This document shows, piece by piece, positions 628 through 16,537 of a stretch of DNA of 20,000 nt. Made by a program: the position numbers and the translations under genes. This DNA is from an uncultured virus (IMG/VR IMGVR_UViG_3300031234_000003) (lineage: Duplodnaviria; Heunggongvirae; Uroviricota; Caudoviricetes), in the IMG/VR virus record IMGVR_UViG_3300031234_000003. One strand, 5' to 3'. Each line of letters opens with the position of its first letter. Position 1 is the first letter of the stretch. The notes beneath the pieces were generated by a model, which saw nothing but the letters and a program-made list of their open reading frames with translations, was not told the origin of the DNA and searched no databases.

Positions 628-933
628 ATGACCAAGATTAGCGAGCGCAAGACACGGCTGAGCTTCGAGACGGATGCCGAGATGCGGGGGTGGGGTAGCA
701 TCACCGTAGACAAGGAGAAGCGGAAGACACGACGTGTCCCCGTGACTCGGGCAATCATCGTGGACGTGGACAACGCATTCCACGGCACCGTGCGGTTGAA
801 GGGTACGCGGCAGACCTTCGACTTCTCGTGGGAGGGCTTGTTCCTGTGGGCGGTCGAGCAGAAGGTTATGAAGGAGCGTGCGGAGAAGAAGCGGCTGCGT
901 GACGCTAAGAAGAAAGGACGGTTTGTGCGGTGA
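628..933 (+). CDS. Small basic hypothetical protein (101 aa)
   Basis: ATG 628 has a strong SD and a promoter (the track's 490 start is unlikely). K/R-rich. Its 3' end overlaps the convergent giant ORF by 29 nt (905-933). Confidence 0.8.
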   Translation: MTKISERKTRLSFETDAEMRGWGSITVDKEKRKTRRVPVTRAIIVDVDNAFHGTVRLKGTRQTFDFSWEGLFLWAVEQKVMKERAEKKRLRDAKKKGRFVR

Positions 934-1285
934 CCTCAATGGGGGCGTTGTAGACAACGCTCCCATAAATTCTCAGGCTGTCTTGCCACGTACCCTTGCA
1001 GTTCTGCCATTCCTCATACAACTCATCTTCACTACGACCAAGCGTGTAGGTCAGAGGCTCAGCAACCGAGTTCTGGTCGGCCTCCAGCAACGCGGGGTTG
1101 AATGCACTGAGTGGTAACTTGATAACCTTGTATTCTTCCTCGGGTCCAATCTCTTCGGCAGCGGTCTCAGCGTAATACTCGGCGATCTCAGCGGTGCCCC
1201 ACCAGCTAGGCTCAGGCAGTACGCCGCCAGCACTCATGGCTCGATTGTAGTCCGTCATGCTCATGCCGTGGTAAAGGAACCCATC
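905..1285 (-). other. Segment 26 (aa 3758-3883): H-type ART-like module, paralog of segment 1
   Basis: DGFLYHG...SWWG...LPLSAFN...TWQDSLRIYGSVVY. Confidence 0.65.
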
Positions 1286-4200
1286 AGCCGCAGCGGTCAC
1301 ATAGCTTCGGGCTGGCTGTGCGTTGGGCGGGGTTGCTTCCTTCGCGTTGCAGGTATTCATCACAAACCACTCGGACTGCATACCCGGATAGTTGCTTTCA
1401 TCGGGGTGCGTTCGATTACGCCAAAGAACGATATCCTCCAGAGCGATACCTTGAATCTTGCCCACGGTCTGCCACACGATGCCCCGATGTCCGCCCGAGA
1501 ATCCCTTGGCGGTGTCGTAAGCTGCCGACCAAGACAACAGGTCTCGAAGATGTGGCTCCCACTTGGCGGGCTCGCGGTCGTCGCCCATGCGAATCTCTTC
1601 CCCACGATAGAGGCACTTTCGAGTAGTCGGCGGTACGAATGGCGTGAGTGATTTGACCAACTCAACCACTCGACCGGATGCCGCTGGGTTGTCCTCAAAG
1701 GCGTCGGCACACTGCACGTATTGACCGAAGTAGCCGTACAGCGCATCGTCCATGGCGATAGTGTAGCAAACCTTGTCGTACTTGCTACGAGGAAGATCGG
1801 CAGCGGTCACGGATCGGCCTAACGCTGGGAGTTCGACCTGAGCCTTGGGCTTGAGGCGGACTTCCTTCTCTTCGGGGAGAGTGACCCATGCCCTGAAGGT
1901 GTTAAGCCAGTCCACAGCGTTCGCTTTGATCTTACCCTCGAAGACCTCGATGCGGTGTTGATCGGGGTAGTCGATGTACTTATCTTCCGCAAAGTTCTCG
2001 GCAAACTTCCTATCCAAAGACCATGACCAACCGAAGGTGCTGTAGTCAATGTCATGACGCTCGTTGAAAACAGCCATGCCGCGATACACCGTGAGCGGGA
2101 ACTTTTGGGATTTCCAGAACGCCAACGCCTGATCGTACCAGCGTTTGCTTTCCTCGTCGCTGCCAAACATGAATTCGTCATCAGCCAAGGTGGATTCGTC
2201 CATCACCTGCTCGAAGGTTGGGAAGGCTGCCCCGAACTTCTCACCGGGCTTCCTGCCCTCGGTAGGGACGTAATCGTACTTGTGCATACCCGTGATCTTG
2301 ACCTTACCCAGATCGGCTGTAGGTACGAAGAACCCATCCTCCTTCTGGTCGGTGGTGATTGCCACGCCTTCGGGAACCTGTACTTCAATGATTGCCATCT
2401 GAGGTATTTGCTTCTTGTTTTCTTCCCACGAATTCTCTGGCTGCATGTTGCGTGTGAAGAGTTGACCCTCAGCGTAGGCGGCGTAAGCCTCGGAGTATTT
2501 CAAATCGTCGTAAAAGTAGATGCCGTCGCGTCCCTGCGGAGCGTAGTAGTTCTTCCACATACCTTGATCCACGGGCTTGAAGCCGTGAGCTTTGATGTCT
2601 TTGGCAATAGGCACTGTCGTGACGTGATAGAGCTTGAGGGCTCGGGCTGGTGTGGCTGCGGTCAACGCCTTTGCTTTACCGCCGCCGATCCTAATCTGGT
2701 CGGCTGAAAACACGCAATAGCTATACTTGCCGTTGTACTCATCCACCATGGTGCTGTCGTAGCCGCGTTCCTTCATGCGGTTGACGGCTTCCTGATTGTC
2801 CAAAATGTTCCAATCGAGGCCGTTCTGCTTCACAATCTCGTTGAGCCAGTTGCCTTCTGGGTCTACATCGATGGCAAAGGCTCCCAGTTCAATCGTCTTG
2901 ACGGAATTGCCTTGCAAGTCGGAATAGCCGTCACTCATACATAGCTCGCAGATGTAAGTCAGGTCGGCGATCTGTTTCTTGCTCAGATTGTATTGATCTT
3001 CTTGCCGAATCAGTGGCTTCTTCATCTTCAAGTAGCAGGTCATGACGTTTGAGCCGAACTCTTTCGCTTCCTCAGGGTCATCGGTGAAGAAGAACCCACC
3101 AGCTTGTACCTTAATCTCGGAGAAGAGAATGTATCGGGTGCCGGGTTTCTGCTCGAACTTGTCGAATTTCTTATCGGTGCCGTGATACACAGGACCCACT
3201 TCACCGCGAGCAGCGAGCTTTCGGGAGACTTTCCCCCGTGGCTCCTCGTAATCTCGTAGGTCCACGACCTTGCACTTGAGCAAGATGCCGAGCTTCATGG
3301 CGGCGTTTGCGCGGTGGTTGCCGTCGTACAGCCAATCGCCTTCGGTGGTGCGGCACACGAGGGGGTACAACTGCTCCGTGTCACTCAGCCCGACATTGCT
3401 GTGCGGCTTGGTGATCTCCTCGGGGTTGTCCAAGAAATACTGGAGGTCTTTCCGCTTGAGGGTCGCCTGATTCGTCTTCAGATCGGCTGGATGTAATTCT
3501 TCAAGTTGAGCTTCCTCGATCAAACGGTCACGCTCAAACAGACGCATGTGGCGGAAAGTCTCCATCACATCGGGACGTTCGGGGAAGACCTGAAGCATGT
3601 TCGGCATATCCCCGTCGTCGTCCGAAGCCGTCTTGGGCTTACCGAGAAGCTGCTCGATCTTCTTGCCGTCGCTCTTGAACAAACTGATGAGTCCCGGGTG
3701 GAAATCGCTGGCGTTATCCTTCACCATCTCCTGAATATCTACCCACGTGAACCATTCTAGACCCGTGGTTTCCCAGTGATGTTCGGACTGCGGGGCGAAG
3801 CGGAACTCCGTACCCACGGTGCCGAGGAAGTTGTGATAGGAAAAGCCGCCCTTTGAAAATACGTAAGCTGGGTGCATGGTGATGCCGCCCGTGAAGCCCG
3901 TCTCTTCCGTTAGTTCGGCCTTGGCACTGTCCGCGAGGCTCATCTTTGGCTTGACCGCTCCACCGATGGTGCCCCAGCAATTGCCGATGTGAACATCGGG
4001 TGACCGCCACGCGAGACAGATGCGACCAGTGGTGGTGCAGATCGGCAGCACGCCAGACGCGGCGTTACCCTCGCCCGCCCAGAAGCCCTCATTATTGAAT
4101 CCTTCGGCGATCTTCATCGACGCCGTTGCACCTTGAGCCTTCGCCCCAACGAAGTCTATGTCGCGGGCATAGACGTTATGGTCGGTGCCGCCCTTCGCCC

Positions 4201-7200
4201 ACTTGATCTCGTAGAACTTGTCAGCCCCACCGTGATACTGTTGTGCCACATCAGGCGGAATGCTGCGGATGTTCTTGATGACACCCTTCATCCCATCAGC
4301 CTTACGAGTGACCTTGGAGCCGATGTCACCCGGCTTAGACATGGCAGCGTCCACTTCATAGATGTGGCTCGCGTCAAACACACAAATCTGATCGCCGTCG
4401 AGCAGCTTGTACATGCCCTTGCCCTTGAACCATACGGCGTCAAACTGAGCCTTCAGGTGCTCGGTCATCGGCTTGGTCGCTTCCACGCGATTCTTCTTGG
4501 CGAGGTCCGCGTTGTAGCCCTGACTGATCCACCATTTCATCATGGTCTTCGGCACTCCGAAGTTGATGGTCTCCAGCCGTGGCACGTCGAGGTAGTAGGT
4601 CTTCATGCCCCGCGTGGTGCCGCCTGCGAACTGCTTGGCGATAGCCTTGGCGGTCGTGAAGTACACGCCGTAACCCAGATGGTGCACGGGGGCTGGGATG
4701 CCGTCATGGTAGGGTTGGTTACCTTCGTAACCGTGGGCAACGTCGCCCGATCCCGCGTCCCCGATGTAGACCTTGAAGCCCTCGTTCCCGATGTTCTCCT
4801 GCTTCTCCTCGGTGGTGCCATGGTAGACAGGGCCGAACATCTTGCGGTCAACGGCGTCCTGCTGGCTAATGCGGTTCATGGCGGCGAGCTTTGCCACGCC
4901 TGCCAGCTTCTTCATGAAGATGCCTGCGGTGCTGCTGTCGAACCATCGTGGCGGCGGGTCGATCACGTAGGGCTGGAACCCCAGACTGTTGTAGAAGGAG
5001 CTTAATTCCTTCCCAGAGAGCCCTGTGAGCGAATGAGCGAGCAAGAAGCACACTTGGGCACCCTGAGCCTTCGCTGCGTCGAGCACAGCCCCTACAAGCG
5101 CCCTGCCGAGCCCATTACGACGTGTCGCGACCTTGACGCTTACGGTGCCCAAAACGAAGGCTTTGTCGTAAATTCCAGCCCCACCTTTGGGTAAAGTGCT
5201 CCAATCAAACCACTTAACCAGCCCCTCGCGGTCTTCCATGGTGCCGGAAGCACTTCCATCGACGTGTTTGGCGGTAATTCGCCCGTCTGGTGCCGTGGTG
5301 ATCTTGATTTCTTCCTCAAACCCAGCCGTCTTGACGATCCGCCCACCATCGAAATACTTGATGGCGGTGATGTTCTGCCGAGAGATATCGCCCTCAATGC
5401 GACGGTACATGTCGCCTTCCTCGAAATGCTCCGGGTCAGGCTCGCTCTTGCCGTAATCCCAGATGAACTCGATCACGGCGTACTGGTCGCTGTCCGTCAC
5501 ACTCGCACCGTATTCCTTCGCCGCGAACTCCGCGATGGCGCACCAGATGTATTTCTTGCCGCCTGTCAGACGGTTGTCGCTCGCTTTCAGACCTTCCTTG
5601 TCGATCAGTTGAGCGGCCTGCCACGAGGTTCCGTGGTAGAAGACCTGAGGATCGTCTTCGTGAGCCGATGCCGCCACGCCCTTAGCCTTGGGCTGACCCT
5701 TGCGTGCGTCCACCACTTCATACTTGCTGCCGTACTTTGTATTCCACTGGCTGAAGAAATCCTGCGGGATGGTGCCCCAGTGTAGAAGCATTCGAACTGG
5801 CGATGGGGTTGCCCGCACTTCAAGGTCCCGAACTTCTACGAGAGCGAGAATGTGGTTTGACCCGCTGAAGCCAATCGGCTCATTGATGCGGGAGGTGTTA
5901 ATGTTGTATGTCTGGCTTCCTTCAGTGTTCGGACGGGCTAGGAGCCGCAATGTACGGGTGACCTTCTCTGCCGCTTCGCGGAACGCCGCCTCTCCCTCGG
6001 ACGCATCGGGGAGTATGGTGTTCATGTCGGGGCGTTGTTTCTCCTTAGGGGTGCCGTAGAAGACTTGATCCCATGCCCGAATGTAGGAGTAGTTGTCCTT
6101 GACGTGACCCGCCGCACGGGTGACGGCACCTAGCCACACGCTGGGTAGGAGCTTCTCAAGCTCAGCCTTCAGTTCGGGATGGAATGGCATCTTACGTTCA
6201 GCGAACTTGGCTTCCCATTGCGTGAAACACTTGCGGACGTAATCTTCCCGCATCACCCTGATCTCATCCTGCCAGTCTTGGGTTGCGCCTTCCTGTGTAG
6301 CTGCCAAGTAGTAGCAGAGAACGTGGAAGGTGTTATCGCTCATGTGCTTGATTGGAGCACCGAGAACCCCCGTAACGTTGTCCTCGTCAAGGTACATGGT
6401 GTTCGGCTGAAGCTCCATGATAACCACGAGCGAGCCGCCGCGAGCCTTTCTATCCTCGGTATCGGGGGCTCCCGCAGCCGTCATGAGGTTCTGTGACACG
6501 TAAATGCCGCCGTAAGATTGACGGCTGGGTGCGGATATCCCAGCATCAGGATCGTCTGCCCAAACCTTTTCCGTACCTTCAGGAACTAACCCCTGACTCA
6601 TGATGCTTCGCAGATTCTTGATGCTGGTGCCGTGATACCAGATGGACTTCGGTGCGGCGGTCTTGACTTGACGCACGACCTTGAGCGGTCCCATGTGAGC
6701 GGCCTTGCCACTGAGTTCGATGATTGCACGAGCGAGCTTGGGGTCATTCTTGACGATGTAGTCGGTCAGATACTTCATCTGCTCCGCAAGCTCTGCCGAG
6801 CCCTCGAACTCGATCTCGCCCCATGCTTTCCACGCTTCCTCGAAGTTTTTGTAGACCGGGAACTTCTCGGGCTCATTGTAGGAAGCATTCTCGTCATTCC
6901 ATTGCTTGAGCCACAAAGCCTTAACTCGCTTGGCTTGGGCGGAACCCTTGGCGTTCAACTCACCACCACGGTCATTGAGGAGTTCGTAAACATCGTCCTC
7001 ATCGGGCAGGAGCTTACTGATGTCAGGAGCGGCTACCTCAAGCACGGGTCCGCCGCGCTCGATAGCGTACTGGTTTGCTACGTCGAACTCTGCGATGTAT
7101 ACCGCCCCGTCACGCGGGATGTCGATGTCGTAGGTGGTCTCCTGATCTGGGCGTAGGTAACCATCCCCCATGATAATCTCGGCATTTTTCGTGGACGTGC

Positions 7201-10200
7201 CGTGATACCACTTCTTCGGCATGGCGGCGGTCACACCGATTGCTTTCGACTCCGCTGGGATCGATAGGGCGTAGTGGGGATATGTCTTTTTGAACAGGTC
7301 TACCACGTCGTTAGGTATCAACTCGTTTGTGGGGGTTGCCAAGGTCACGGTTTTCTGATCCACGTCGATCACCGCGTAGCCCCGTAGTACCTCTTCGTAC
7401 TTCCGCCCAGAGGACATGCCCTCACCCATAGTTCTCGCTATCAGTGTTGCATGAGGGCCTATGCTTCCCTTCTGCGAGAACGCGCCATAGTCAGGGTGGT
7501 AAATCCACTTTTCATTCCGCTTCTCATTCAGGCTGCCGATCTTACTCTTGAACACCTTGAAGTGGTCCGCAGGTAGTGGCTTTGTCAGTACAACCGTGCC
7601 GGGGAATGCCTTCTCGCTAAAGTTCAATTCTCTCTCAATGGTGTCCTCAGTGCCGTCCTCAGGATCAACTTCGAGATACGACATCGGGATGTTACGGACC
7701 TCAAGGATGGTGTCGCACCCCTTCTCATTGGCGAACCACTGAGCATTCTCAGGGAAGTTCGTGAGATAGAGGTACTGCGGCTGTCCAGCGTTCCCGCCCG
7801 ATGAGACTTGATTCGGCCCCCAGCCGTTCTTCATGATGGCTTCAGCGTTCTCGGGGCAGGTGCCATGGTACAGCGTAGGCGCTGTGGTGCCTGCATACTT
7901 GACAAACTGCTTCGGTTCCCAGTAAAGCTTCCAGTGGTCTTCGTACTTGCCGCTCAGTTCGCACAACGACTCACCCGGCTTCTCAACCTTGAGGACGGTG
8001 GTCTCTGCGACAGGCATCTTGTCGAACGTGAAGTAAACCTTCTCGTTCATCAGGACTGGCGGACGGCTTCGGAATGCCCAGAACTCCAGATTGTGCGCGG
8101 GCGGCTCGTCCCAGAAATGACCACGGGTTTCTTTCGGCACTTCGATGAAGAACGCAAACTTGGCGATATCTGACGATTTTCTGACGATACCTGACGATAA
8201 CGACCAGTGGGGTTTACGGGGTTCCAACTTCATAATCACGGCTGGAATAGTCGTTTTGCCCATCTTCTTAGCCGCACGGGTGCGGTGATGCCCCTCTTCC
8301 AAGTAGTATTTCCCCGGCTGGTCTTCGTACTCATCTACGAGGATGGCTTCGAACCACTTCTCCGCTTCCATCTGCGTGTGAATCTCGTCCACACGTCTGT
8401 CAGTTGTCCATTGCTCGCCCTGCGTTTCCACCACATCGGCGACGTTGATGAATTTCTGCTCGATTCCCTTCAGTTTCCGAACGAACGATGCGGGCAGCAT
8501 GTGTTCCTTGACTGGATCGGCACTGAAATCAATGTTCCAGCCCTGCCACTCACCTACACCCTGCTCAGACTTGTACTGTACGTTGGCTCGGTTGGGATTA
8601 AACATTCCCATCTTTGCCGACGCAGCGTCCTTACTGGCTTTGAGGCCGTTCTTTAGGATATCGTCGAGGTTCTCCGCTGCCGTGCCGTGGTAGAACTTCG
8701 GCATCTTCCGTGCGGCTTCCTTCTCATCGGAGAACAACGGCGGGTCGAACATCAGAGGGAAGTCCTGTCCGCCGATGCCCTTCTGACCACGCAAAGGCAG
8801 GTTCTTGGATTCGTCGCCGTATGCCATGACCCTTTTCTGAGCGGGCTTCTTATAGCCTTGCCCGTAATCGATACCAATCAATTGAAGCTCAGCGCCCGAC
8901 TCAATTGTGATCTCATTTTCATCTTCGTTGAGCATGTTAGCAAGAAGAGTCGCGTCCCAGTCCACATCGGTTGAGCGTAGTACCTTGGCTTTGAGGATCA
9001 AGGTTTGAGGATGTTTCGGGTGCGGACCACCTTGATCCCACATTGACCCCGAGCCAAAGTACGCATCGGCACTGTTCTCAACCCACGTCCAATAGACGCC
9101 CGCCTTTTCCAAATTCGGTTGCGTGCCCTGCTCAACTTGAACCGCACGATAGATCGTGATGGGGAAGTCCACTGTGCTGAAGTGGGCGACATTCTCGTCG
9201 TAGCGGTACTCAGCCTCGTTGAAATCGTCTGGCTGGTACATCGGATTCGCGTCACACCAGTTGTCGAACGGCATGGGCTTGAAGTTCTGCGCTGCCGCAC
9301 GGACTGTGCGAAGGTTCTTTGGCGGATTCTTCCACGCCTTCTCACCTTTGTATTTGTAGCCCGTGATCTGGATTTCTTCACCCGGATGAATGTTGATCTC
9401 CCGCTCATCGGCTGCCACGAGGTTCACGTAGGCAGTGCGAATCCAGTCGATCTGCTTGGGCGAACTCACGACGCCACGCAGGATTACGATGTGCGGGTGC
9501 CCAGCAGCGAGTTCTTCGTGCACATAGGCGTTATTCTCGTCGTAGGACCAATAGATGCCAGTCCCCTTCTCCGCGTATTGACCCTTGTTGATTTCCTTAA
9601 GGCTCACCGAGCCCAGCCCACGGTAAACCGTGAGGGGGAACTTCAGGGATTGAAGGCGATTCATAGTGATTTCCCATGTCGCCCCGAGCCACTCCCAGCC
9701 GATCTTGTCGAGCCACACTTCCTGCTCAGCCTCGGGCATCTTCTCCCAATCCTTGCCTTCGGCTTTCGCACGTCCAGCGGCTTCGGACCTGATCTTATCC
9801 CAATCGCCCTGTGCCTCGCTGAGGCTACCACCCCAAGCAACCACGTCCTGTAAATCAAGATCGTACACGCTGCCCGCTCCCGTCTTGAACAGGTCGGGTG
9901 AAAGCGATTCAAGCGACGGCAGGTCTTCCACACCCATCACACGCTCGGGGATGTCGGCGTAAGCATTCGTCTCCTCGCCCATCTCGGGATTCCTGTACTG
10001 CGTGTCGCTCATCGGCGGCGTCTTGTGGGATGCTGACTTTCGCGGCTTACCGAAAGGTACTCGAACCTGACCACCACCCTTCGTACTCAGGGTGATGCTG
10101 TCCACTTGGAAGGAAATGCCCTCGGCCCAATCCATTCCCTCATATTTGGCGGCAGCGTCAGGCTTGACGTAGGCAAGGGTCACGTGCGGTACGTAGGGAA

Positions 10201-12556
10201 AATCATCTTTGCGGGTGCCCATCGCTTCTGCGACCTTGTTGTGGAGAGCCTCAAGTTCGGGAGCGTGACACTGAACCACGATGGGGGCTTGGGCGTCAGA
10301 GCTTTCGCTCACGGAGAATACGTGCGTCTTCCCTAGCGTGACCGTAAACGGTTGCTGCTCGCCTACAACTTGACTCAACAGAGCGGGGTCGGGCTTTACC
10401 CCGTACTTAACTGTGATGTGTGGATCGTCCTCACGACCATCCTTGCCGAGTTCCTCATCTGGAATCTGCTTGGCGGCTTCCATCATCCCGGAGGCGGCAT
10501 CAGGCGGCAGGTTGATTTGAGACGTGGCGTTTTTGTGGGGACCTGACTTGGCTTTCTTTGCTGCCTCAATGTCGGCTTCATCCTGAGCGGCGGAACAACC
10601 GAACTTCGCCATCGGAGCATTCGCCCAAAGGTCCTGAATTTTCTGCTCCTGCTCTGGGGTGCGGGGCAGATTCCATCCGCCGTATTGTTTGATACGCCCA
10701 CGCCCACGAGTAAACACGTGGTCGTTCGTTTTGACCAGCTTGAATTCTCCCGAAGTCCAATCGAGTCCATCGAGGTACGCCATAGCCTGACGGCTGAGCC
10801 CCAGCGCCCATTGCCAGCCCAAACGTTGCTTGTGCCGACCGTAGACGTAGTTATTGAGCAGGAGCCAGTATTCTTTCGTTGGCTCATCGCTGATGACACT
10901 CTGATCGGAGAACTCGGTCACGAAGTCCGCTCCGTACTTCGCATTGAAGCGAGCGGCGACGGCCTGCCATTCTTTGCCGTGTCCCTCGGGTGCGAGTAGC
11001 TTTTTGTATTTGTTGTAGGCGTCGAACCCGACTTCCATGAGTTTCGGCTTCCCAATAAGCAGAGCCACTTCATGATGACACAGTTCGTGAGCGATAGTAC
11101 GGCGAAGCGATTCCTCGTGCCCCAGTATGGACTTCTGAATGCCGATTGTGGTGTTGTCCGCACCCCAAGTGTTACCCGCCTCATCCCTACCCCGTTCCCA
11201 CACATCGTACCCCAGCATACGGTTGGTCTGGTTTACGATCTTGACTTCGGGATGCGGGAGCCCGGAAGCGAGCACGCCCATCATTTCGTTAATGATGTTC
11301 TTGACCTGACCGATATCGGCGGCGGTTTTCTGTGCCGCAACCTTGGGATTCATGATGCCCATTATCATCAGTTCCCCGCCGTAGACCGAGGCAACCTGCT
11401 CAAAGTCGTTGCGTTCGTACCACTCCACCAAATTGAAGCCTTGGGCTTGTTCCTCAGCGGTGTCGGCAACCAACAGACAGATGCCCGCACCGCGATCCCC
11501 GGCTTCTCGCAAGAACTCGGCAAGCAGATAGTCCCCGTAGCCCTTGCCACGGGAATCCTCGTATACGTTGATGTTGTTTAGAACGGCGAAGGTGTCATAC
11601 TTCTTCCGCAGGTCGGCAACAAACTCTTTGTTCGTGTAGCCGAAACGGTCGAGCCAATTCTGGAGTTGTTCCGCATTGGTGTCCGCTGTGTACCCTTCTG
11701 CGGAACCCTGATCTTCCGAGATGTTGATTTCCCGTACCGAAGAGGATGCCAGTTTGCTGAACGTCTCGATTTGGCTCTGCGGCACCATGATTTGAACCTT
11801 TGGGTAACCCTGATCGCGGAGCACGGAGAAGCGGTGCCGACCGTTGGTGAAATGCGCCTCACCACCCGCATTGTCGCTCCACGACACAATAGGAGCCTCA
11901 ACTGGGGTGTTGGGGTTGTCCTGCCGCCACTGGGTAAAGCGAGCGTAGCGGTCGCCGATGTGATTGGTTTTATCCCCCGGAGCGAGGTACAGGTGTTTGT
12001 CCTTCGACCACTCGCGATCTAACTTTTGCGTATCAACCCAAACTAGCTCGTAGTCTTCGAGCTTCCTATCCGATGGTTGGGTGAACTTAAGCGGCGGCAA
12101 CTCGGTTGCGGTCTTGCTCGCCATAACCTGCCGACCTTCGATAGCATCGGCTGGTGTGACGGGCATATCCTCATCGTACATGACCGCTCCCCAAATCTTC
12201 AGCGAATCCATCCACGTCTTCTTGCTCGCCTTCCACGCACGATTCGTGGCGTTCATTTTCTTCTGATCGTAATCCCCGTTCTCGTCTTCCATGAAATACG
12301 GGTCTTGAATCATGTTCTCGTCAGGGAGTAGAAAGGCTTCGTTGAACCTGCTAACGGGCAGCCGTAACATGGCCCCGCCCTCATACATGTCCGCCGTCTC
12401 CCTCACGCCCCAATAGCTGTGCCCCTCCACCTTCCCTTCGGTCAGGATGGACTTGAGGTCTCGTAACGTGGTGCCGTGATAGAGAAAGCCGTCTGTCTCA
12501 AAGAATGAGGTCGTGGTCGCGGGCTGTTTGGCTATCTTCCGAAGCAATGGGTTCAT
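905..12556 (-). CDS. Giant multidomain effector (polyvalent-type) protein, 3883 aa, about 26 linker-delimited segments including 14 ART-like modules
   Basis: Uninterrupted 11.65-kb ORF with AGGA 7 nt upstream of the ATG. Repeated YHGT and YR[GA]..W[ST]..ExE motifs, plus HELCH, HxT/HxT, G[RHN]HR, GNAT and Nudix motifs. Confidence 0.95.
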   Translation of the reverse strand: MNPLLRKIAKQPATTTSFFETDGFLYHGTTLRDLKSILTEGKVEGHSYWGVRETADMYEGGAMLRLPVSRFNEAFLLPDENMIQDPYFMEDENGDYDQKKMNATNRAWKASKKTWMDSLKIWGAVMYDEDMPVTPADAIEGRQVMASKTATELPPLKFTQPSDRKLEDYELVWVDTQKLDREWSKDKHLYLAPGDKTNHIGDRYARFTQWRQDNPNTPVEAPIVSWSDNAGGEAHFTNGRHRFSVLRDQGYPKVQIMVPQSQIETFSKLASSSVREINISEDQGSAEGYTADTNAEQLQNWLDRFGYTNKEFVADLRKKYDTFAVLNNINVYEDSRGKGYGDYLLAEFLREAGDRGAGICLLVADTAEEQAQGFNLVEWYERNDFEQVASVYGGELMIMGIMNPKVAAQKTAADIGQVKNIINEMMGVLASGLPHPEVKIVNQTNRMLGYDVWERGRDEAGNTWGADNTTIGIQKSILGHEESLRRTIAHELCHHEVALLIGKPKLMEVGFDAYNKYKKLLAPEGHGKEWQAVAARFNAKYGADFVTEFSDQSVISDEPTKEYWLLLNNYVYGRHKQRLGWQWALGLSRQAMAYLDGLDWTSGEFKLVKTNDHVFTRGRGRIKQYGGWNLPRTPEQEQKIQDLWANAPMAKFGCSAAQDEADIEAAKKAKSGPHKNATSQINLPPDAASGMMEAAKQIPDEELGKDGREDDPHITVKYGVKPDPALLSQVVGEQQPFTVTLGKTHVFSVSESSDAQAPIVVQCHAPELEALHNKVAEAMGTRKDDFPYVPHVTLAYVKPDAAAKYEGMDWAEGISFQVDSITLSTKGGGQVRVPFGKPRKSASHKTPPMSDTQYRNPEMGEETNAYADIPERVMGVEDLPSLESLSPDLFKTGAGSVYDLDLQDVVAWGGSLSEAQGDWDKIRSEAAGRAKAEGKDWEKMPEAEQEVWLDKIGWEWLGATWEITMNRLQSLKFPLTVYRGLGSVSLKEINKGQYAEKGTGIYWSYDENNAYVHEELAAGHPHIVILRGVVSSPKQIDWIRTAYVNLVAADEREINIHPGEEIQITGYKYKGEKAWKNPPKNLRTVRAAAQNFKPMPFDNWCDANPMYQPDDFNEAEYRYDENVAHFSTVDFPITIYRAVQVEQGTQPNLEKAGVYWTWVENSADAYFGSGSMWDQGGPHPKHPQTLILKAKVLRSTDVDWDATLLANMLNEDENEITIESGAELQLIGIDYGQGYKKPAQKRVMAYGDESKNLPLRGQKGIGGQDFPLMFDPPLFSDEKEAARKMPKFYHGTAAENLDDILKNGLKASKDAASAKMGMFNPNRANVQYKSEQGVGEWQGWNIDFSADPVKEHMLPASFVRKLKGIEQKFINVADVVETQGEQWTTDRRVDEIHTQMEAEKWFEAILVDEYEDQPGKYYLEEGHHRTRAAKKMGKTTIPAVIMKLEPRKPHWSLSSGIVRKSSDIAKFAFFIEVPKETRGHFWDEPPAHNLEFWAFRSRPPVLMNEKVYFTFDKMPVAETTVLKVEKPGESLCELSGKYEDHWKLYWEPKQFVKYAGTTAPTLYHGTCPENAEAIMKNGWGPNQVSSGGNAGQPQYLYLTNFPENAQWFANEKGCDTILEVRNIPMSYLEVDPEDGTEDTIERELNFSEKAFPGTVVLTKPLPADHFKVFKSKIGSLNEKRNEKWIYHPDYGAFSQKGSIGPHATLIARTMGEGMSSGRKYEEVLRGYAVIDVDQKTVTLATPTNELIPNDVVDLFKKTYPHYALSIPAESKAIGVTAAMPKKWYHGTSTKNAEIIMGDGYLRPDQETTYDIDIPRDGAVYIAEFDVANQYAIERGGPVLEVAAPDISKLLPDEDDVYELLNDRGGELNAKGSAQAKRVKALWLKQWNDENASYNEPEKFPVYKNFEEAWKAWGEIEFEGSAELAEQMKYLTDYIVKNDPKLARAIIELSGKAAHMGPLKVVRQVKTAAPKSIWYHGTSIKNLRSIMSQGLVPEGTEKVWADDPDAGISAPSRQSYGGIYVSQNLMTAAGAPDTEDRKARGGSLVVIMELQPNTMYLDEDNVTGVLGAPIKHMSDNTFHVLCYYLAATQEGATQDWQDEIRVMREDYVRKCFTQWEAKFAERKMPFHPELKAELEKLLPSVWLGAVTRAAGHVKDNYSYIRAWDQVFYGTPKEKQRPDMNTILPDASEGEAAFREAAEKVTRTLRLLARPNTEGSQTYNINTSRINEPIGFSGSNHILALVEVRDLEVRATPSPVRMLLHWGTIPQDFFSQWNTKYGSKYEVVDARKGQPKAKGVAASAHEDDPQVFYHGTSWQAAQLIDKEGLKASDNRLTGGKKYIWCAIAEFAAKEYGASVTDSDQYAVIEFIWDYGKSEPDPEHFEEGDMYRRIEGDISRQNITAIKYFDGGRIVKTAGFEEEIKITTAPDGRITAKHVDGSASGTMEDREGLVKWFDWSTLPKGGAGIYDKAFVLGTVSVKVATRRNGLGRALVGAVLDAAKAQGAQVCFLLAHSLTGLSGKELSSFYNSLGFQPYVIDPPPRWFDSSTAGIFMKKLAGVAKLAAMNRISQQDAVDRKMFGPVYHGTTEEKQENIGNEGFKVYIGDAGSGDVAHGYEGNQPYHDGIPAPVHHLGYGVYFTTAKAIAKQFAGGTTRGMKTYYLDVPRLETINFGVPKTMMKWWISQGYNADLAKKNRVEATKPMTEHLKAQFDAVWFKGKGMYKLLDGDQICVFDASHIYEVDAAMSKPGDIGSKVTRKADGMKGVIKNIRSIPPDVAQQYHGGADKFYEIKWAKGGTDHNVYARDIDFVGAKAQGATASMKIAEGFNNEGFWAGEGNAASGVLPICTTTGRICLAWRSPDVHIGNCWGTIGGAVKPKMSLADSAKAELTEETGFTGGITMHPAYVFSKGGFSYHNFLGTVGTEFRFAPQSEHHWETTGLEWFTWVDIQEMVKDNASDFHPGLISLFKSDGKKIEQLLGKPKTASDDDGDMPNMLQVFPERPDVMETFRHMRLFERDRLIEEAQLEELHPADLKTNQATLKRKDLQYFLDNPEEITKPHSNVGLSDTEQLYPLVCRTTEGDWLYDGNHRANAAMKLGILLKCKVVDLRDYEEPRGKVSRKLAARGEVGPVYHGTDKKFDKFEQKPGTRYILFSEIKVQAGGFFFTDDPEEAKEFGSNVMTCYLKMKKPLIRQEDQYNLSKKQIADLTYICELCMSDGYSDLQGNSVKTIELGAFAIDVDPEGNWLNEIVKQNGLDWNILDNQEAVNRMKERGYDSTMVDEYNGKYSYCVFSADQIRIGGGKAKALTAATPARALKLYHVTTVPIAKDIKAHGFKPVDQGMWKNYYAPQGRDGIYFYDDLKYSEAYAAYAEGQLFTRNMQPENSWEENKKQIPQMAIIEVQVPEGVAITTDQKEDGFFVPTADLGKVKITGMHKYDYVPTEGRKPGEKFGAAFPTFEQVMDESTLADDEFMFGSDEESKRWYDQALAFWKSQKFPLTVYRGMAVFNERHDIDYSTFGWSWSLDRKFAENFAEDKYIDYPDQHRIEVFEGKIKANAVDWLNTFRAWVTLPEEKEVRLKPKAQVELPALGRSVTAADLPRSKYDKVCYTIAMDDALYGYFGQYVQCADAFEDNPAASGRVVELVKSLTPFVPPTTRKCLYRGEEIRMGDDREPAKWEPHLRDLLSWSAAYDTAKGFSGGHRGIVWQTVGKIQGIALEDIVLWRNRTHPDESNYPGMQSEWFVMNTCNAKEATPPNAQPARSYVTAAADGFLYHGMSMTDYNRAMSAGGVLPEPSWWGTAEIAEYYAETAAEEIGPEEEYKVIKLPLSAFNPALLEADQNSVAEPLTYTLGRSEDELYEEWQNCKGTWQDSLRIYGSVVYNAPIEVTAQTVLSS
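1286..1798 (-). other. Segment 25 (aa 3587-3757): R-S-E type ART-like module with a QxE motif
   Basis: LYRGE...LSWSAAYDTAKGF...QSEWFV (QSE at 1370-1378); ends in YVTAAA. Confidence 0.7.
1799..2224 (-). other. Segment 24 (aa 3445-3586): R-S-E type ART-like module, paralog of segments 7 and 8
   Basis: FPLTVYRG...GWSWSLDRKFAENFA...VDW...EEKEVRL; ends in SVTAA. Confidence 0.75.
2225..2653 (-). other. Segment 23 (aa 3302-3444): H-type ART-like module
   Basis: LYHVTTVPIAKDIKAHGFKP...GIYFYDD...AYA...IIEVQVP; ends in EKFGAA. Confidence 0.7.
2654..3208 (-). other. Segment 22 (aa 3117-3301): ART-PolyVal-like module
   Basis: VYHGTDKKFDKF...GFFFTDDPEEAKEFG..VMTCYLKMKKP...GYDS...YCVFSADQI, the pattern typical of ARTs in polyvalent proteins; ends in ALTAA. 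Confidence 0.8.
3209..3625 (-). other. Segment 21 (aa 2978-3116): ParB/Srx-like module
   Basis: LKTNQATL...PLVCR...WLYDGNHRANAAMKLG; ends in RKLAA. Confidence 0.8.
3626..4105 (-). other. Segment 20 (aa 2818-2977): Nudix-fold module with a degenerate Nudix box
   Basis: ASGVL...TGRICLAWRS...WGTIGG AVKPK M SLADSAK AELTEETGF ... ETTGLEWF ... FHPGL; ends in PKTA. Confidence 0.85.
4106..4879 (-). other. Segment 19 (aa 2560-2817): ART-PolyVal-like module plus a C-terminal SH3/KOW-like barrel
   Basis: VYHGT...GYGVYFT...AKQFA...FDAVWF...QICVFDASHI, then IGSKVTRKADGMKGVI...YEIKW (about 4148-4330); ends in MKIA. Confidence 0.7.
4880..5323 (-). other. Segment 18 (aa 2412-2559): GNAT acetyltransferase module
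   Basis: VSVKVATRRNGLGRALV...LSSFYNSLGF; ends in KKLAGVAKLAA. Confidence 0.8.
5324..5662 (-). other. Segment 17 (aa 2299-2411): H-type ART-like module
   Basis: FYHGTSWQAAQLIDKEGLK...YIW...AKEYG...VIEF...GDISRQNI; ends in VKTA. Confidence 0.75.
5663..6652 (-). other. Segment 16 (aa 1969-2298): H-type ART-like module with a long extension
   Basis: WYHGTSIKNLRSIMSQGLVP...GGIYVS...YLDED, followed by about 240 aa with no motif I recognise; ends in GVAASA. Confidence 0.7.
6653..7222 (-). other. Segment 15 (aa 1779-1968): H-type ART-like module with a helical insertion
   Basis: WYHGTSTKNAEIIMGDG...AVYIA...ANQYA...VLEV...LLPDED; ends in VKTAA. Confidence 0.7.
7535..7891 (-). other. Segment 13 (aa 1556-1674): H-type ART-like module
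   Basis: LYHGTCPENAEAIMKNGW...YLYLT...AQWFA...ILEV; ends in SKIG. Confidence 0.75.
7892..8152 (-). other. Segment 12 (aa 1469-1555): small beta-rich module, possibly ASCH/PUA/EVE-like
   Basis: EFWAFRSRPPVLMNEKVYFTFDKMPVAETTVLKV resembles the ASCH/PUA strand pattern; weak, by eye. Confidence 0.35.
8153..8605 (-). other. Segment 11 (aa 1318-1468): ParB/Srx-like module
   Basis: EAILVD...YYLEEGHHRTRAAKKMGKTTIPAVI; ends in AKFA. Confidence 0.8.
8606..8710 (-). other. Segment 10 (aa 1283-1317): truncated H-type ART remnant, 35 aa
   Basis: KFYHGTAAENLDDILKNGLKAS, then directly the AKMG linker; the rest of the fold is missing. Confidence 0.65.
8822..9289 (-). other. Segment 8 (aa 1090-1245): R-S-E type ART-like module, paralog of segment 7
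   Basis: FPITIYRA...GVYWT...VDW...DENEI; ends in RVMA. Confidence 0.7.
9290..9877 (-). other. Segment 7 (aa 894-1089): R-S-E type ART-like module
   Basis: FPLTVYRG...GIYWS...DEREI; ends in VRAAA. Confidence 0.7.
10031..10597 (-). other. Segment 5 (aa 654-842): 2H phosphoesterase module
   Basis: Two HxT motifs, PHITVKYG (10409-10420) and PHVTLAY (10175-10186), 78 aa apart; ends in RKSA. Confidence 0.85.
10598..11317 (-). other. Segment 4 (aa 414-653): SprT-like zincin metallopeptidase module
   Basis: TIAHELCH (HExxH at 11075-11089) followed by GHGKEW, as in SprT family proteins; ends in AKFG. Confidence 0.8.
11318..11746 (-). other. Segment 3 (aa 271-413): GNAT acetyltransferase module
   Basis: INVYEDSRGKGYGDYLL (acetyl-CoA motif A, RGxGxG) and LVEWYERNDF; ends in QKTAA. 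Confidence 0.8.
11747..12106 (-). other. Segment 2 (aa 151-270): ParB/Sulfiredoxin-like module
   Basis: APIV...FTNGRHRFSVLRDQG matches the ParB/Srx (D/N)GxHR motif; ends in SKLA. Confidence 0.7.
12107..12556 (-). other. Giant protein segment 1 (aa 1-150): H-type ART-like module, paralogous to the last module
   Basis: DGFLYHGT...SILTEG...SYWG; ends in SKTA. Confidence 0.65.
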
Positions 12557-12585: not shown

Positions 12586-13128
12586 TCAACGGCGGGACTT
12601 CTTCTTTTTCGCCAGTTTATAGCCCCTTTTGAGGGCTCGTTTGACCGACCTTGAGGGCGGTGTATCGCGGCGAATTGCGATGAGCGGGGTCACAGTAGGC
12701 CAGTATTCAACGCGGACGACCTTGCGGTTCAGGGGCTTTTGAGTCTTGGTTTCCTCATCAAGATAGGTAGTTTGGATGGCACAGATACCCATCATCACGT
12801 CTTGAGAATCCTGCGACTGCTCACAGTCAACTTCGCTGAACTGGGCGTCGTTGGCGTTCGGGTGGGTGTGAATGGTGCCGAGGTAAGTCAACCCGATCTC
12901 GGCTGCGTCCTCTTCATGTTCATCGATCTCGTAATCCTCGTACCGAAGGGTGCGTTTTCCGGGCTTGTGATCGACCTTCACAAAGGCATGAATGTAGAGG
13001 ATATCGCTGCGTACTTTGCCCCACAGGGCTTCCATGTATTCCAATGGGTAATGATTCAGGGCTCGGCGACGGAACTTCGCCTCCTCCTTCTTATCGACCA
13101 CAATGCGGGTGAAGGGTGCGACTGCCAT
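12586..13128 (-). CDS. JAB/MPN (JAMM) domain metalloprotease
   Basis: N-terminal glutamate in YPLEYMEALWG and LGTIHTHPNANDAQFSEVD (HxH-x8-S-x2-D, about 12826-12870). Basic C-terminal tail. Starts 6 nt after the stop of the upstream gene. Confidence 0.85.
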   Translation of the reverse strand: MAVAPFTRIVVDKKEEAKFRRRALNHYPLEYMEALWGKVRSDILYIHAFVKVDHKPGKRTLRYEDYEIDEHEEDAAEIGLTYLGTIHTHPNANDAQFSEVDCEQSQDSQDVMMGICAIQTTYLDEETKTQKPLNRKVVRVEYWPTVTPLIAIRRDTPPSRSVKRALKRGYKLAKKKKSRR

Positions 13129-13134
13129 GATGAC

Positions 13135-15021
13135 TTATTTTTCCTTTGTTGCCTCGGCTTTCAACTGTTGAGCAAGAGCTATAACCTCACTGCGGTTTGG
13201 CAGAACCCACAGCGTGCTGACTGGTTTACCCGGAGCAAGTCTCTCCATGGCCTCACGAATGTAATGCGTCTCACTCGCGGGCGATTCCTCGGGCTTGTGA
13301 TACCCAGCAGCTTCCCATGCTTTGCGGTACTTCTCATCGTCGGGCTTTTCCCAACGCGCTTTCCTGAGCGTCTCCGTGGCTTTCATGTAAATCGACCACA
13401 GGGATGTCTTGCTTCCAACAATAGCTCTGACAGCCGTCTCAATGTCGCCTACGGTCAGGGAGGCAGTCTTTCCCATCGACCGGGCTTTGAGACTCGTTGC
13501 CAAAGCTGCTGCAATTTCAAACCGAAGGCTTTCATCCGTGCGACCTTCGATGGCGAACTGAAGCTTTTCAAGCTCCCGTTCCCCTTCCTGCACTAACTTA
13601 TTCAGGTTGCTCAGAGTTTCGTGCTCTTCGGGCGTCAATCCGCCCTTTGTGGGCTTGTAAAGCAGGTCGTGCGTGACCTCGGCCCATGCGTGCATCAGGA
13701 CGGATGCTACCTGAATCTCGATCTGCGTGTCGGCGTACCGAAGCTCCTTCTTGCGGAGCGTCTCGGGGCGCAGGCGCACCAGATAGTGGGTTGCCGTGTA
13801 GCCCAGCGTATCGCCTTCCTCGGGCTTGCTGGCTTCGGGGAAGCTCTTTGGGGGTCGCACGGGGACGAATAACTTTTCAATGATCTGTCCAACCGCATCG
13901 CGGTCGGCTGGCATGTAAAGCGCCACACGGCAGCCAGCTAAATCGATGATGTCGTCGTCAATATCGCGGAACGTCTTATAGTTCCTCTTTTGATTTCGCT
14001 TGTACAGCTTTTTCCCCAGCCGATCTGGGGTCTTCGCACGGGAGCTAACCACCGCCTTGATCCCCGCATCCTGAAGAGCCTGATCCAATTTGTCCTGTAC
14101 GAGGTGCGCGACTTCATCGTAGAAGTCCACCTCGTGCTTGTAGTTCTTCAAAAAGGCTTCGATGACCGTGTACTTCTCACCGGCCGCTGTCAGAGCGATC
14201 ACATAACGGTTCTGCTTTTCATCATGCGTGACCGGATACCGTTTCTTGAGTCGGTCCCACGCTGGCTCAGCGGTAGCGGGGTCGCGTTGGTCATCCGACA
14301 GGAAATACTTCGCTCCTCGGCGCTTTACCTCGGCGATTGCCCGATCATAAATCTCCTGCCCCAGCCCGGTTTTCCGACGCTCCGGTGCGCTGATGAACTT
14401 TAGGCGATAGGCGGGCTCGCCTTTGTATCGGGTGCGGTATACGCTTGCACCACCCTGCCGCTCCCCGCTCGCGTCTAGACCGTTGATATCGAACATTGTC
14501 GAATCGCCCGTGATCCGCCACTGAAGGTCTTCGTTTGCAGCCTGCTTCTTGGCGGCGGCGTCCTTCTGTTTCGCCTTCACCGTGTCGAACAGGTACTCGA
14601 AATCGACCTCGGAGATGTCGCCCAGCAGTTCTTCGCCCGCTTGCCCAATGTACGCCTTTTCAGCTTCCTCTAGTGTGTCGAACCCCAGCATCACTTTGTA
14701 CTCGTCGAACTCTCCATCAGGTGTGTTTTGCTCAACAATGTAGGCATATTCGGCATCTTCGTTGGGACCCCTGTAGATGTCGAGATTCTCCTTATCCCCG
14801 GTTGCCGTCGTGTCGGGGATGTAGCCGTAATCGACTTTCATCTCTGTTTTGAACGACGTACCGTCAGGTTTCTTACCGACGCGGGTGCTTCCCTTCGGCC
14901 ACTCAATTATAACAGGGAGACCCCGAAATTCGGTAGAGTGTTCCTGTGGCAGCTTGTCGGCGATGACGATTTTCACGAAAATGCCCTGTTTTCTGTGGTT
15001 TTGGGGGTCTCTGGGTAACAC
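13135..15021 (-). CDS. Multidomain protein: inorganic pyrophosphatase (InPase-type) - GNAT - RelA/SpoT alarmone synthetase domain - unknown C-terminal domain
   Basis: InPase: IEWPKGS..DYGYIP..GDKENLDIY..DEYKVMLGF (14536-15021). GNAT: RRKTGLGQEIY (14182-14535). RelA/SpoT: RAK...K, DLAGCR, GYTATH, EIQV..HAWAEVTHDLLYK (13462-14181). Start is uncertain (GTG 15021 or GTG 14976). Confidence 0.9.
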   Translation of the reverse strand: MLPRDPQNHRKQGIFVKIVIADKLPQEHSTEFRGLPVIIEWPKGSTRVGKKPDGTSFKTEMKVDYGYIPDTTATGDKENLDIYRGPNEDAEYAYIVEQNTPDGEFDEYKVMLGFDTLEEAEKAYIGQAGEELLGDISEVDFEYLFDTVKAKQKDAAAKKQAANEDLQWRITGDSTMFDINGLDASGERQGGASVYRTRYKGEPAYRLKFISAPERRKTGLGQEIYDRAIAEVKRRGAKYFLSDDQRDPATAEPAWDRLKKRYPVTHDEKQNRYVIALTAAGEKYTVIEAFLKNYKHEVDFYDEVAHLVQDKLDQALQDAGIKAVVSSRAKTPDRLGKKLYKRNQKRNYKTFRDIDDDIIDLAGCRVALYMPADRDAVGQIIEKLFVPVRPPKSFPEASKPEEGDTLGYTATHYLVRLRPETLRKKELRYADTQIEIQVASVLMHAWAEVTHDLLYKPTKGGLTPEEHETLSNLNKLVQEGERELEKLQFAIEGRTDESLRFEIAAALATSLKARSMGKTASLTVGDIETAVRAIVGSKTSLWSIYMKATETLRKARWEKPDDEKYRKAWEAAGYHKPEESPASETHYIREAMERLAPGKPVSTLWVLPNRSEVIALAQQLKAEATKEK

Positions 15022-15062: not shown

Positions 15063-15301
15063 GGGGAGTTTAGGCTGGCATTGGTTATCAGAAATTTTTT
15101 CCGCATAGATTGTGACGGAACTTGGGTATTACAAAAATGTGGGAGACTGCACTCAAAACACGGCAGGCCAGCTCGCCCCCATCGGCATCGGCGCTATCAT
15201 TTACAAGTGGCTCCGCACTGGCTCTACGCTGTCCCTACGCTGGCGCACCATTTTTGCAACTACGTGTTGCTTAGATGAGTCTCTTCTCGGAGGAAATGTT
15301 C

Positions 15302-16537
15302 TTGGCTAAGAAAAAAGATTCGAAGAAAGTCTCAAAGCAAACCCTCATCGCTGAAGCCCAGCGCCTAGCAACTCAAACAGACGAACTCACACGTGATTTT
15401 TTCCGTAACAAGAGTGAGTTCAAGGACGGCTGGAACATTTACTGGCCGACCTTCCAAGCCTTTCTCGCCGAAGCAAAAGTAGTCTCCAAGATCGCCAAGC
15501 CGTCACCCGACAAACAGGTCGAACTTGAGATCGAGAAAGTCCGCGACCGCAAGACCAATCTGAAAGCCAAATACGAAGCGGCTATTCACCGCGCCGAACG
15601 CGCCGAGGAAACCCTGTCGGTATTGCAGGACCTCCGCACCAAAACACCGCAGCATCTCAGCATCCTGCCGAAGGTTGTTACTGGCACCAGCGAATCAGTC
15701 GCAGTGTGGGCGGCAAGCGATTGGCACATCGAAGAAAAGGTCGATTACGCCGATGTCGAAGGTCGCAACTACTTCGATCTGAATACCGCGCATCACCGCA
15801 TTGAGATGTACTGGCAGAACATGATGCGCCTGACGGACATCATGCAGAAGGACACCAACATTCCCGTCGTCTTTCTGGCTCTGCTGGGCGATTTCATCAC
15901 CAACACCATTCACCCCGACGTGGCTGAAAGCAATCAGCTTGGTCCGGGCGATGCGATCTGGTGGGTGCAGGAGCGCCTTGTCAGCGGCATGAAGTTCGCC
16001 CTTGACAACCTCAGCAAGAACACGGTCCTCAAGGTCGCCTGTCACACGGGCAACCACGGTCGCAGCACACCGAAACAGCGCCAGAAGACTGAGCCTTCAA
16101 ACTCGTGGGAGCGGTTGATGTACCGCGAAATGAAGATGATCTTTGACGGCGACTCGAAGTACGGCAAGCGCGTCGAGTGGTGCATTGCTGACGGTTACCA
16201 CAGCACGCACGACCTGTTCAATGGAGCCTTCAAGCTTCGTACTCACCACGGCCACGCCATCGGTTACGGCGGCGGCGTTGGCGGCATCACGATTCCTGTC
16301 AACAAGAAGATCGCCAACTGGAACATCAACAACCCGAGAACTCCAAACCTCGATTTGTTCGGTCACTTTCACCAGTACATTGATAGCGGAACGTTCGTCA
16401 CAAACGGCAGCTTGATCGGCTACAACGCCTTTGCTAACACCATCGGCGCAGCGTTCGAGAAGCCCACACAGGCGTTCTTCCTCATCAACAAGAAGTTCAA
16501 CTCGAAGACAATGGCAACGCCAATTTTCCTCGACTAA
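15302..16537 (+). CDS. Calcineurin-like metallophosphoesterase with an N-terminal coiled-coil region
   Basis: All five motifs present: SDWH, LGDF, GNHG, HHGH, GHFH. Start placed at TTG 15302, 8 nt after GGAGG (15289-15293); the track start 15275 is an alternative. Confidence 0.88.
   Translation: MAKKKDSKKVSKQTLIAEAQRLATQTDELTRDFFRNKSEFKDGWNIYWPTFQAFLAEAKVVSKIAKPSPDKQVELEIEKVRDRKTNLKAKYEAAIHRAERAEETLSVLQDLRTKTPQHLSILPKVVTGTSESVAVWAASDWHIEEKVDYADVEGRNYFDLNTAHHRIEMYWQNMMRLTDIMQKDTNIPVVFLALLGDFITNTIHPDVAESNQLGPGDAIWWVQERLVSGMKFALDNLSKNTVLKVACHTGNHGRSTPKQRQKTEPSNSWERLMYREMKMIFDGDSKYGKRVEWCIADGYHSTHDLFNGAFKLRTHHGHAIGYGGGVGGITIPVNKKIANWNINNPRTPNLDLFGHFHQYIDSGTFVTNGSLIGYNAFANTIGAAFEKPTQAFFLINKKFNSKTMATPIFLD

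Follow-up and report, generated by a model that had tools for sequence, protein, structure and literature searches.

We wanted to establish what is encoded by a single open frame of 3883 amino acids (P0001; positions 905..12556, minus strand) in a 20,000-nucleotide stretch of DNA, hereafter the window, from an uncultured virus of the class Caudoviricetes. The window is part of the IMG/VR virus record IMGVR_UViG_3300031234_000003, which is 85.7 kb long and has an estimated completeness of ~45%; the phage origin of the genome is supported by the record itself and by matches to PHROG phage families across the genome, and a megablast search of phage and plasmid records returned no near-identical match to the window. 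An initial annotation had proposed that P0001 contains fourteen ADP-ribosyltransferase (ART)-like modules from both major clades, the H-type and the R-S-E type, which raises the question of how many of these modules are ARTs and what such a protein would do. Drawing on the domain identities, folds, and conserved catalytic residues described below, we consider it probable that P0001 is a polyvalent multi-effector with 13 complete ART-like modules and one remnant, that other enzymes are interleaved with these modules, and that the protein is delivered and uses NAD+. All modules and domains of P0001 lie on the minus strand, like the gene itself.

A motif scan of P0001 found YH[GV][TM] at ten sites (residues 26, 1289, 1563, 1784, 1974, 2307, 2578, 3124, 3310, and 3762) and YR[GA] at four (residues 978, 1136, 3491, and 3650), each where the initial annotation had placed it; the fourteen coordinates given there are the low-coordinate (i.e. 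C-terminal) ends of the modules, which we refer to as M1 to M14. When the protein was shuffled 2000 times, YH[GV][TM] occurred 0.035 times on average and at most twice. The count of YR[GA] alone is not significant because the same shuffles gave a mean of 1.2 and a maximum of 7, but this weak count is offset by the finding that three of the four R modules are clear homologues (hhalign probability of 99.4-100%). An I-x-x-x-G helix, said to follow the YH strand in most cases, was seen in eight of the ten modules (the exceptions are M10 and M14), and the R...W[ST]...[EQ]xE arrangement is present in all four R modules.

Among the H-type modules, M10 (residues 3112-3300; 2657..3223) matched the Pfam family ART-PolyVal (PF18760) over residues 3118-3289 (E=3.7e-17), scoring 63.8 bits where the cut-off is 31.2. 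It is the only module to pass this cut-off, and 11 of the 14 had no match to the PF18760 model at all. When the excised modules were searched against Pfam, nine of the fourteen had no ART family match, and M4, M7, M8, and M9 gave sub-threshold matches to PARP, Tpt1, DarT, or ART-PolyVal; the NCBIfam search returned far sub-threshold Tpt1 matches alone, in five of the fourteen. M5 (residues 1550-1676; 7529..7909), M6 (residues 1772-1968; 6653..7243), M7 (residues 1962-2298; 5663..6673), and M8 (residues 2296-2412; 5321..5671) are connected through M6, with hhalign probabilities of 97.5% (M5), 97.9% (M7), and 88.3% (M8). M7 has weak Tpt1 and PARP matches and a long C-terminal extension without a Pfam match, and M8 weakly matches Tpt1 (E=0.011) and ART-PolyVal (E=0.14, 13.3 bits). 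A profile of 30 sequences (A5), comprising M5, M8, the N-terminal ART cores of M6 (the first ~115 residues, 6899-7243) and M7 (the first ~127 residues, 6293-6673), and stand-alone relatives, was compared with the PDB. Its 28 best rows were all Tpt1/KptA or diphtheria-type toxins, the first five alone being below E=1e-3. The top row was Tpt1 8tfz_A (E=6.8e-7), aligned over 69 columns that run from strand 1 to strand 3. Of the proteins with a solved structure, Tpt1/KptA is the nearest to the H-type superfamily in sequence. However, only the ART half of Tpt1/KptA aligns, its N-terminal RNA-binding domain being unmatched, and the curated Tpt1/KptA models reached 12-18 bits against cut-offs of 231-279, which places the modules outside that family.

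The remaining complete H-type modules were linked to ARTs in different ways. M1 (residues 10-150, YHGT at residue 26; 12107..12529), for which Pfam gave no match, and M14 (residues 3750-3883, YHGM; 908..1309) are paralogues (hhalign 100%) related to M6 (96.2% and 96.0%, respectively), and the profile of their family matched Tpt1 8tfi_A (E=5.5e-4). M9 (residues 2565-2720; 4397..4864) is probably a divergent ART-PolyVal domain. It matched PF18760 below threshold (E=0.018 and 16.2 bits in one scan, E=2e-4 and 18.1 bits in another), and its hhalign probability to M10 was 95.7% over 80 columns with iterated alignments; strict families (i.e. non-overlapping family alignments) reduced it to 45.5% over 14 columns. 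In the case of M11 (residues 3298-3446, YHVT; 2219..2665), the strict-family comparison with M5 gave 56.6%, and a sequence-profile search of the PDB found no ART; for want of such a profile link, we instead folded a natural relative (L028, about 81% identical), in which M11-like and M13-like modules are adjacent, with AlphaFold2 (AF2). In the M11-like half of the L028 model, 12 of 13 ten-residue blocks had a predicted local distance difference test score (pLDDT) of 62-87 and the remaining block one of 52, and Foldseek ranked PARP13 first (prob 0.99, E=0.025). We conclude that the M11-like domain of L028 is predicted to fold as an ART, which is the fold expected of the H-Y-[EDQ] clade. The residues of this clade were also found: across an M5-type alignment of 142 sequences the H is invariant (142/142), the strand-2 Y and the strand-5 D are each kept in 139/142, and the H is present in ten of ten modules in the window. 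We assign the conserved H, Y, and D, as aligned, to the H-Y-D triad of the published clade.

Three of the R modules form a single family. M2 (residues 955-1092, with R979, WS, and ERE; 9281..9694) and M3 (residues 1105-1248, with R1137, WT, and ENE; 8813..9244) aligned with an hhalign probability of 100%, the R, W, and E-x-E falling in invariant columns, and M12 (residues 3465-3588; 1793..2164) aligned to M3 and M2 at 99.4-99.7%. This family had no match in Pfam, PHROG, NCBIfam, or the PDB sequences, and neither its members nor M13 matched any curated R-S-E family, including Alt/VIP2 and PF03496, at E<=10 in Pfam or E<=1 in NCBIfam. Profile scans of the genome contigs with R family A and with M13 gave nothing usable, only one spurious 16-residue match. 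Across 86 sequences of the R family, the R and the following W are invariant (86/86 each), the next residue is S or T in 66/86 (A in 20), and the Glu pair is kept in 84/86 and 85/86. The residues of the R-S-E clade are thus present, with a middle motif of W-[ST] rather than S-T-S.

An AF2 model of M3 made from a 19-row alignment (pLDDT 84, predicted template modelling score 0.78) has the ART fold of the R-S-E clade. The VIA lists for this model consisted mostly of ARTs, with the cholera, LT, and pertussis toxins at the top. Most other rows in the list of structure matches are proteins that we take to be ART-like, NAD+-using toxins, and the rows without an ART link in their titles were IcmQ, BC2332, CNFy, CC0527, and a cyanophage ejection protein. 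Identity to the cholera/pertussis-type toxins was only 13-16%, and a Foldseek search of the PDB with the model gave no match at E<=0.001. Its matches in BFVD were uncharacterised small proteins of cultured phages (E down to 7.4e-6) and, in mycobacteriophages, fusion proteins labelled "ParB-like". As modelled, M2, M3, and M12 would therefore fold like the cholera/pertussis-type ARTs, with a near-invariant R and E-x-E. Unlike the cholera, LT, and pertussis S1 toxins, M3 is minimal (about 130 residues), lacks their activation and delivery parts, has W-[ST] in place of S-T-S, and belongs to no Pfam family. In a homologous polyvalent protein (P0009), the Pfam family ADPrib_exo_Tox (PF03496) scored 34.1 bits against a cut-off of 23.4, indicating that R-S-E-type ARTs occur in this group of polyvalent proteins.

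We regard the fourth R module, M13 (residues 3600-3758, with YRG, SWS, and QSE; 1283..1759), as a tentative R-S-E ART, on the strength of its motif spacing and of leads from a protein language model. Its nearest ESM neighbours, which serve as leads only (0.88-0.92), were DRAT (0.92), ADPrib_exo_Tox, and Mod_ADP_RT (0.88). The hhalign probability of M13 to M12 was 67% over 49 columns and did not exceed 1.2% in comparisons with the PF03496 domain of P0009 and with the realigned R family A.

The proposed count of fourteen therefore holds in part. P0001 has nine complete H-Y-D modules and three of the R...W[ST]...E-x-E family, and for these 12 of the 14 motif-bearing modules the support for an ART fold is at least moderate; M13 is structurally unconfirmed and M4 is truncated. 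The co-occurrence of H-type and R-S-E-type ARTs in a single open frame is borne out by Pfam (M10), by the Tpt1 profile match (M5-M8), and by AF2 models with structure searches (the M11-like module and M3). M4 (YHGT at residue 1289; 8621..8734) contains strand 1 and helix 1 only, and its PARP, Tpt1, and DarT matches are weak and confined to residues 8-58 of the excised piece. In a blastp comparison with the closest relative, P0002, residues 257-1317 of P0001 aligned to 1-1047 and residues 1305-3883 to 2854-5480, from which it follows that about 1800 residues are absent from P0001. This indel is at about 8600-8640 of the window (residues about 1305-1317), directly after helix 1 of M4, and we interpret M4 from this alignment as a remnant rather than a module.

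The initial annotation knew of no described protein with this many ARTs. This did not hold, since a Pseudomonas aeruginosa prophage polyvalent protein is said by Iyer et al. 2017 (PMC5512222) to hold 12 ART copies, and P0002 has at least 16. Counting modules with hidden Markov models gave at least 16 for P0002, 13 for P0001 (a count that misses M8 and includes the M4 region), 12 for P0003, and 10 for P0019. A word-indexed search identified 11 giant mosaic homologues of P0001 (2243-5480 residues), in which blocks are 39-95% identical and occur in varying order, and HMMER with residues 955-2154 retrieved 812 proteins at E<=0.001, many of them stand-alone relatives of M5 of 120-160 residues. We also note that relatives of P0001 differ by gain, loss, and reordering of whole modules.

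The rest of P0001 is occupied by domains of other kinds, which Pfam searches with the whole protein and with excised pieces identified as two GNATs, a SprT-like zincin, a 2H phosphoesterase, and a NUDIX domain, besides the ART-PolyVal domain. The N-terminal group comprises an unassigned region with a ParB/Srx-like "NGRHR" recognised by eye (residues 150-272; 11741..12109; only LPD24 at E=0.076, below the cut-off), GNAT acetyltransferase 1 (residues 270-412; 11321..11749; Acetyltransf_7 E=1.6e-5, 25.6 bits against a cut-off of 27, and the acetyltransferase family phrog_3810), the SprT-like zincin metallopeptidase with HELCH (residues 410-662; 10571..11329; PF10263, 30.7 bits against 25.6), and the LigT/Acb1-like 2H phosphoesterase (residues 660-850; 10007..10579; 2_5_RNA_ligase2 60.3 bits, and Acb1 26.3 bits against a cut-off of 27). 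After M4 come a ParB-like domain (residues 1318-1452; 8201..8605), in which the Pfam match to ParB_N is sub-threshold (E=2.4e-4, 21.5 bits against 26.3) and phrog_1033 matched at E=2.2e-8, and a conserved domain without a Pfam match (residues 1450-1556; 7889..8209) that has many homologues (query positions about 499-605), several of them short stand-alone proteins. GNAT acetyltransferase 2 (residues 2412-2560; 4877..5323; Acetyltransf_7, 27.8 bits against 27) lies between M8 and M9, and the NUDIX hydrolase (residues 2813-2980; 3617..4120; PF00293, 32.3 bits against 21.1) and an unassigned region with a ParB-like "DGNHR" recognised by eye (residues 2978-3114; 3215..3625; no Pfam match, and a weak phrog_3256 match at residues 3064-3091) precede M10.

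P0001 thus combines, by Pfam, unrelated catalytic domains in one polypeptide (ART, GNAT, zincin, 2H, NUDIX, and ParB) and comes, by its IMG/VR record and PHROG matches, from a phage. Because of this predicted domain architecture, we place it among the phage polyvalent proteins, a class introduced by Iyer et al. 2017 (PMC5512222). That paper describes polyvalent proteins as holding 2-15 domains, with H-Y-D ARTs, in single or multiple copies, as their commonest protein-modifying domain, a GNAT typically adjoining the ART, and an MPTase proposed to process the proteins into units (PMC5512222). P0001 resembles them in being a giant phage protein of joined, unrelated enzymes, in the prevalence of H-Y-D ARTs, in the GNAT beside an ART, and in having MPTase, 2H, ParB, and InPase/RelA-SpoT domains in the same protein or operon (PMC5512222). 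It differs in its three to four R-S-E-like modules, of which the paper reports none in genuine polyvalent proteins (PMC5512222), in its 13 complete modules (at least 16 in P0002), and in the K-T-A-[AS] junction motif described below. Two further phage systems are comparable. T4 Alt is the model of a packaged, injected phage R-S-E ART that modifies host proteins, as described in PMC5512222, but P0001 matches none of Alt, ModA, and ModB at the level of sequence families, and Alt is a single-enzyme protein. The packaged anti-restriction proteins of the phage P1 DdrB/DarB type likewise join a ParB-like domain and a zincin peptidase in one protein, for which proteolytic processing by an MPTase before packaging is proposed (PMC5512222), but P0001 lacks the helicase and methylase modules.

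Further effector genes adjoin that of P0001. Upstream, 29 nucleotides from the polyvalent gene, is a Prok-JAB domain protein of 180 residues (12586..13128, minus strand; PF14464, 32.7 bits against a cut-off of 25), followed by an InPase and RelA/SpoT protein of 628 residues (13135..15021, minus strand; PF18823 105.6 bits, PF04607 43.6 bits); InPase and RelA/SpoT are both named as polyvalent-protein domains in Iyer et al. 2017 (PMC5512222). In the relative P0165, according to precomputed Pfam matches, an M13-like module stands between an InPase domain before it and a RelA/SpoT domain after it. Just upstream of this effector operon, on the opposite strand, are a phrog_284 exonuclease (15275-16537, plus strand) and a stand-alone GNAT (16561-17004, plus strand). 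Elsewhere in the genome are a tail-spike-like protein with an Ice_binding-like beta-helix and K1-lyase_C (G000:C1:60024-61634, locus L010), a TonB_C-domain protein that hints at a Gram-negative host (G000:C1:63773-64630, locus L010), and, outside the window, an ADP-ribosylglycohydrolase-like protein (G000:C1:7080-8099, L008:7080-8099, plus strand; phrog_6572, E=1.3e-22), a possible eraser beside the many ARTs.

In the mechanism that we propose, with packaging, cleavage, NAD+ use, and targets inferred from the literature on the class, P0001 would be made together with the products of the InPase-RelA/SpoT and JAB effector genes upstream, enter the virion, and be delivered along with the phage DNA. 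It could then be cleaved at short junctions of the K-T-A-[AS] type, each of the ART modules would use NAD+ to ADP-ribosylate a different host target (a protein, nucleic acid, or small molecule), and the remaining enzymes would attack nucleotide signals and host factors. The earlier suggestion that the modules form a diversified panel agrees with the published concept of polyvalent proteins as set out by Iyer et al. 2017 (PMC5512222).

Several results weigh against this reading of P0001. Only one of the 14 modules (M10) scores above a curated family cut-off, the PDB match of the M1/M14 family spans strand 1 and helix 1 alone, the link of M9 to M10 is weak with strict families, and M13 is without a Pfam, PDB-sequence, or profile link, the M13-like half of the L028 model having a pLDDT below 50. 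Further, the strand-2 aromatic Y is replaced by W in M1 and M14 and by F in M10. These substitutions, the remnant M4, and the A in place of S/T in 20/86 R-family sequences would fit an alternative in which many ART-like modules have no catalytic activity and instead bind, or serve as decoys for, NAD+-derived defence signals or host ART targets. However, the H, Y, and D are each kept in 139-142 of the 142 M5-type sequences, and the R and E-x-E in 84-86 of the 86 R-family ones. Such near-invariance speaks for selection on catalysis in the majority of modules, and we judge widespread loss of activity to be improbable. It is somewhat less improbable, but still quite unlikely, that the R-type modules (M2, M3, M12, and M13) are a non-ART small alpha/beta domain with a shared strand arrangement and a chance R...E-x-E, given that ARTs, led by the cholera, LT, and pertussis toxins, make up most of the M3 VIA lists, that the R, W, and E-x-E are near-invariant where strands 1, 2, and 5 are expected, and that the M13 language-model leads are all R-S-E ART families.

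Delivery and the use made of NAD+ are likewise open to other explanations. No recognised head or portal gene adjoins the polyvalent gene, and the nearest structural-looking gene, that of the tail-spike-like protein, is about 19 kb off. This lack of a head, portal, or terminase gene nearby, together with neighbours that are an exonuclease, a GNAT, and small open frames, favours a protein that stays out of the virion and, once made during infection, works inside the host cell either as a single giant multi-enzyme or after being cut up. We consider this unlikely, although it is the most serious of the four alternatives weighed here: the polyvalent class is predicted to be packaged and portal fusions are on record (PMC5512222), a match between the neighbouring gene's InPase family and the C terminus of a solved phage portal (9b41_L, residues 631-744; E=3.4e-9) gives indirect evidence, and the genome is only about 45% complete. 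Depletion of host NAD+ by the array, acting as an NADase rather than modifying targets, had also been raised by the initial annotation, and we found no support for it. Tne2, RES, and MbcT, which we take to be NAD+-degrading ART-fold toxins, are among the structure matches, but a single reaction would not need thirteen divergent paralogues, and the phage-encoded ADP-ribosylglycohydrolase-like protein fits reversible modification. We regard depletion as highly improbable, and a delivered, target-modifying multi-effector as the best reading of P0001.

The boundaries between modules in P0001 share a short motif. [KV]-T-A-[AS] occurs at six module boundaries, compared with 0.36 in shuffles (residues 411, 1776, 1966, 2976, 3584, and 3754). 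In 50 large homologues, TAA was found 189 times against 49.8 expected. K precedes in 45% of 300 contexts, and the motif lies 4-25 residues upstream in the case of 36 YHxT motifs out of 189, compared with 3% of random positions. Further, at the N terminus (residues 1-10 in P0001), 10 of 60 long homologues begin with a similar leader, MNPLL-x-K-x-A-[AKS]. The codons vary among the junctions, which indicates that the peptide is the conserved entity; recombination microhomology as the main cause of the junction motif was rejected on the same grounds. Judged from sequence, this suggests that the junction and leader motifs may be cleavage or packaging signals. The word "linker" is absent from Iyer et al. 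2017 (PMC5512222), the one paper searched for it. A more elaborate and still tentative reading, which we hold to be rather less probable than not, would join these signals into a cleavable effector polyprotein, in which leader and junctions are recognised by a phage peptidase that frees ~20 enzymes, with exchange of cassettes and a new R...W[ST]...E-x-E clade. On that reading, in which the junctions stand before most modules, candidates for the peptidase are the SprT-like zincin within P0001, the neighbouring JAB protein, and a prohead protease, with release after delivery; modules may be swapped as cassettes among related phages; and the R...W[ST]...E-x-E clade may be cholera toxin-like and widespread in phages as unannotated small proteins and ParB fusions.

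Overall, the kind of multi-ART phage protein to which P0001 belongs is already known, the published precedent (PMC5512222) having 12 copies, and the gain is therefore one of degree and detail. Three features of P0001 appear to be new in the literature that was searched, although the supplement of Iyer et al. 2017 may list similar architectures: an unannotated R...W[ST]...E-x-E ART-like family inside polyvalent proteins, the mixing of both ART clades in one protein, and the junction and leader motifs. Polyvalent proteins have been predicted from sequence to be a first-strike toolkit of phages, and almost none has been tested. P0001 and its relatives amount to a compact, naturally occurring library, with 13 to at least 16 divergent ARTs whose catalytic residues are conserved. 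The targets of these modules could show which host or defence components are disabled by phage ADP-ribosylation, and a defined junction motif would open the processing of polyvalent proteins to direct test.
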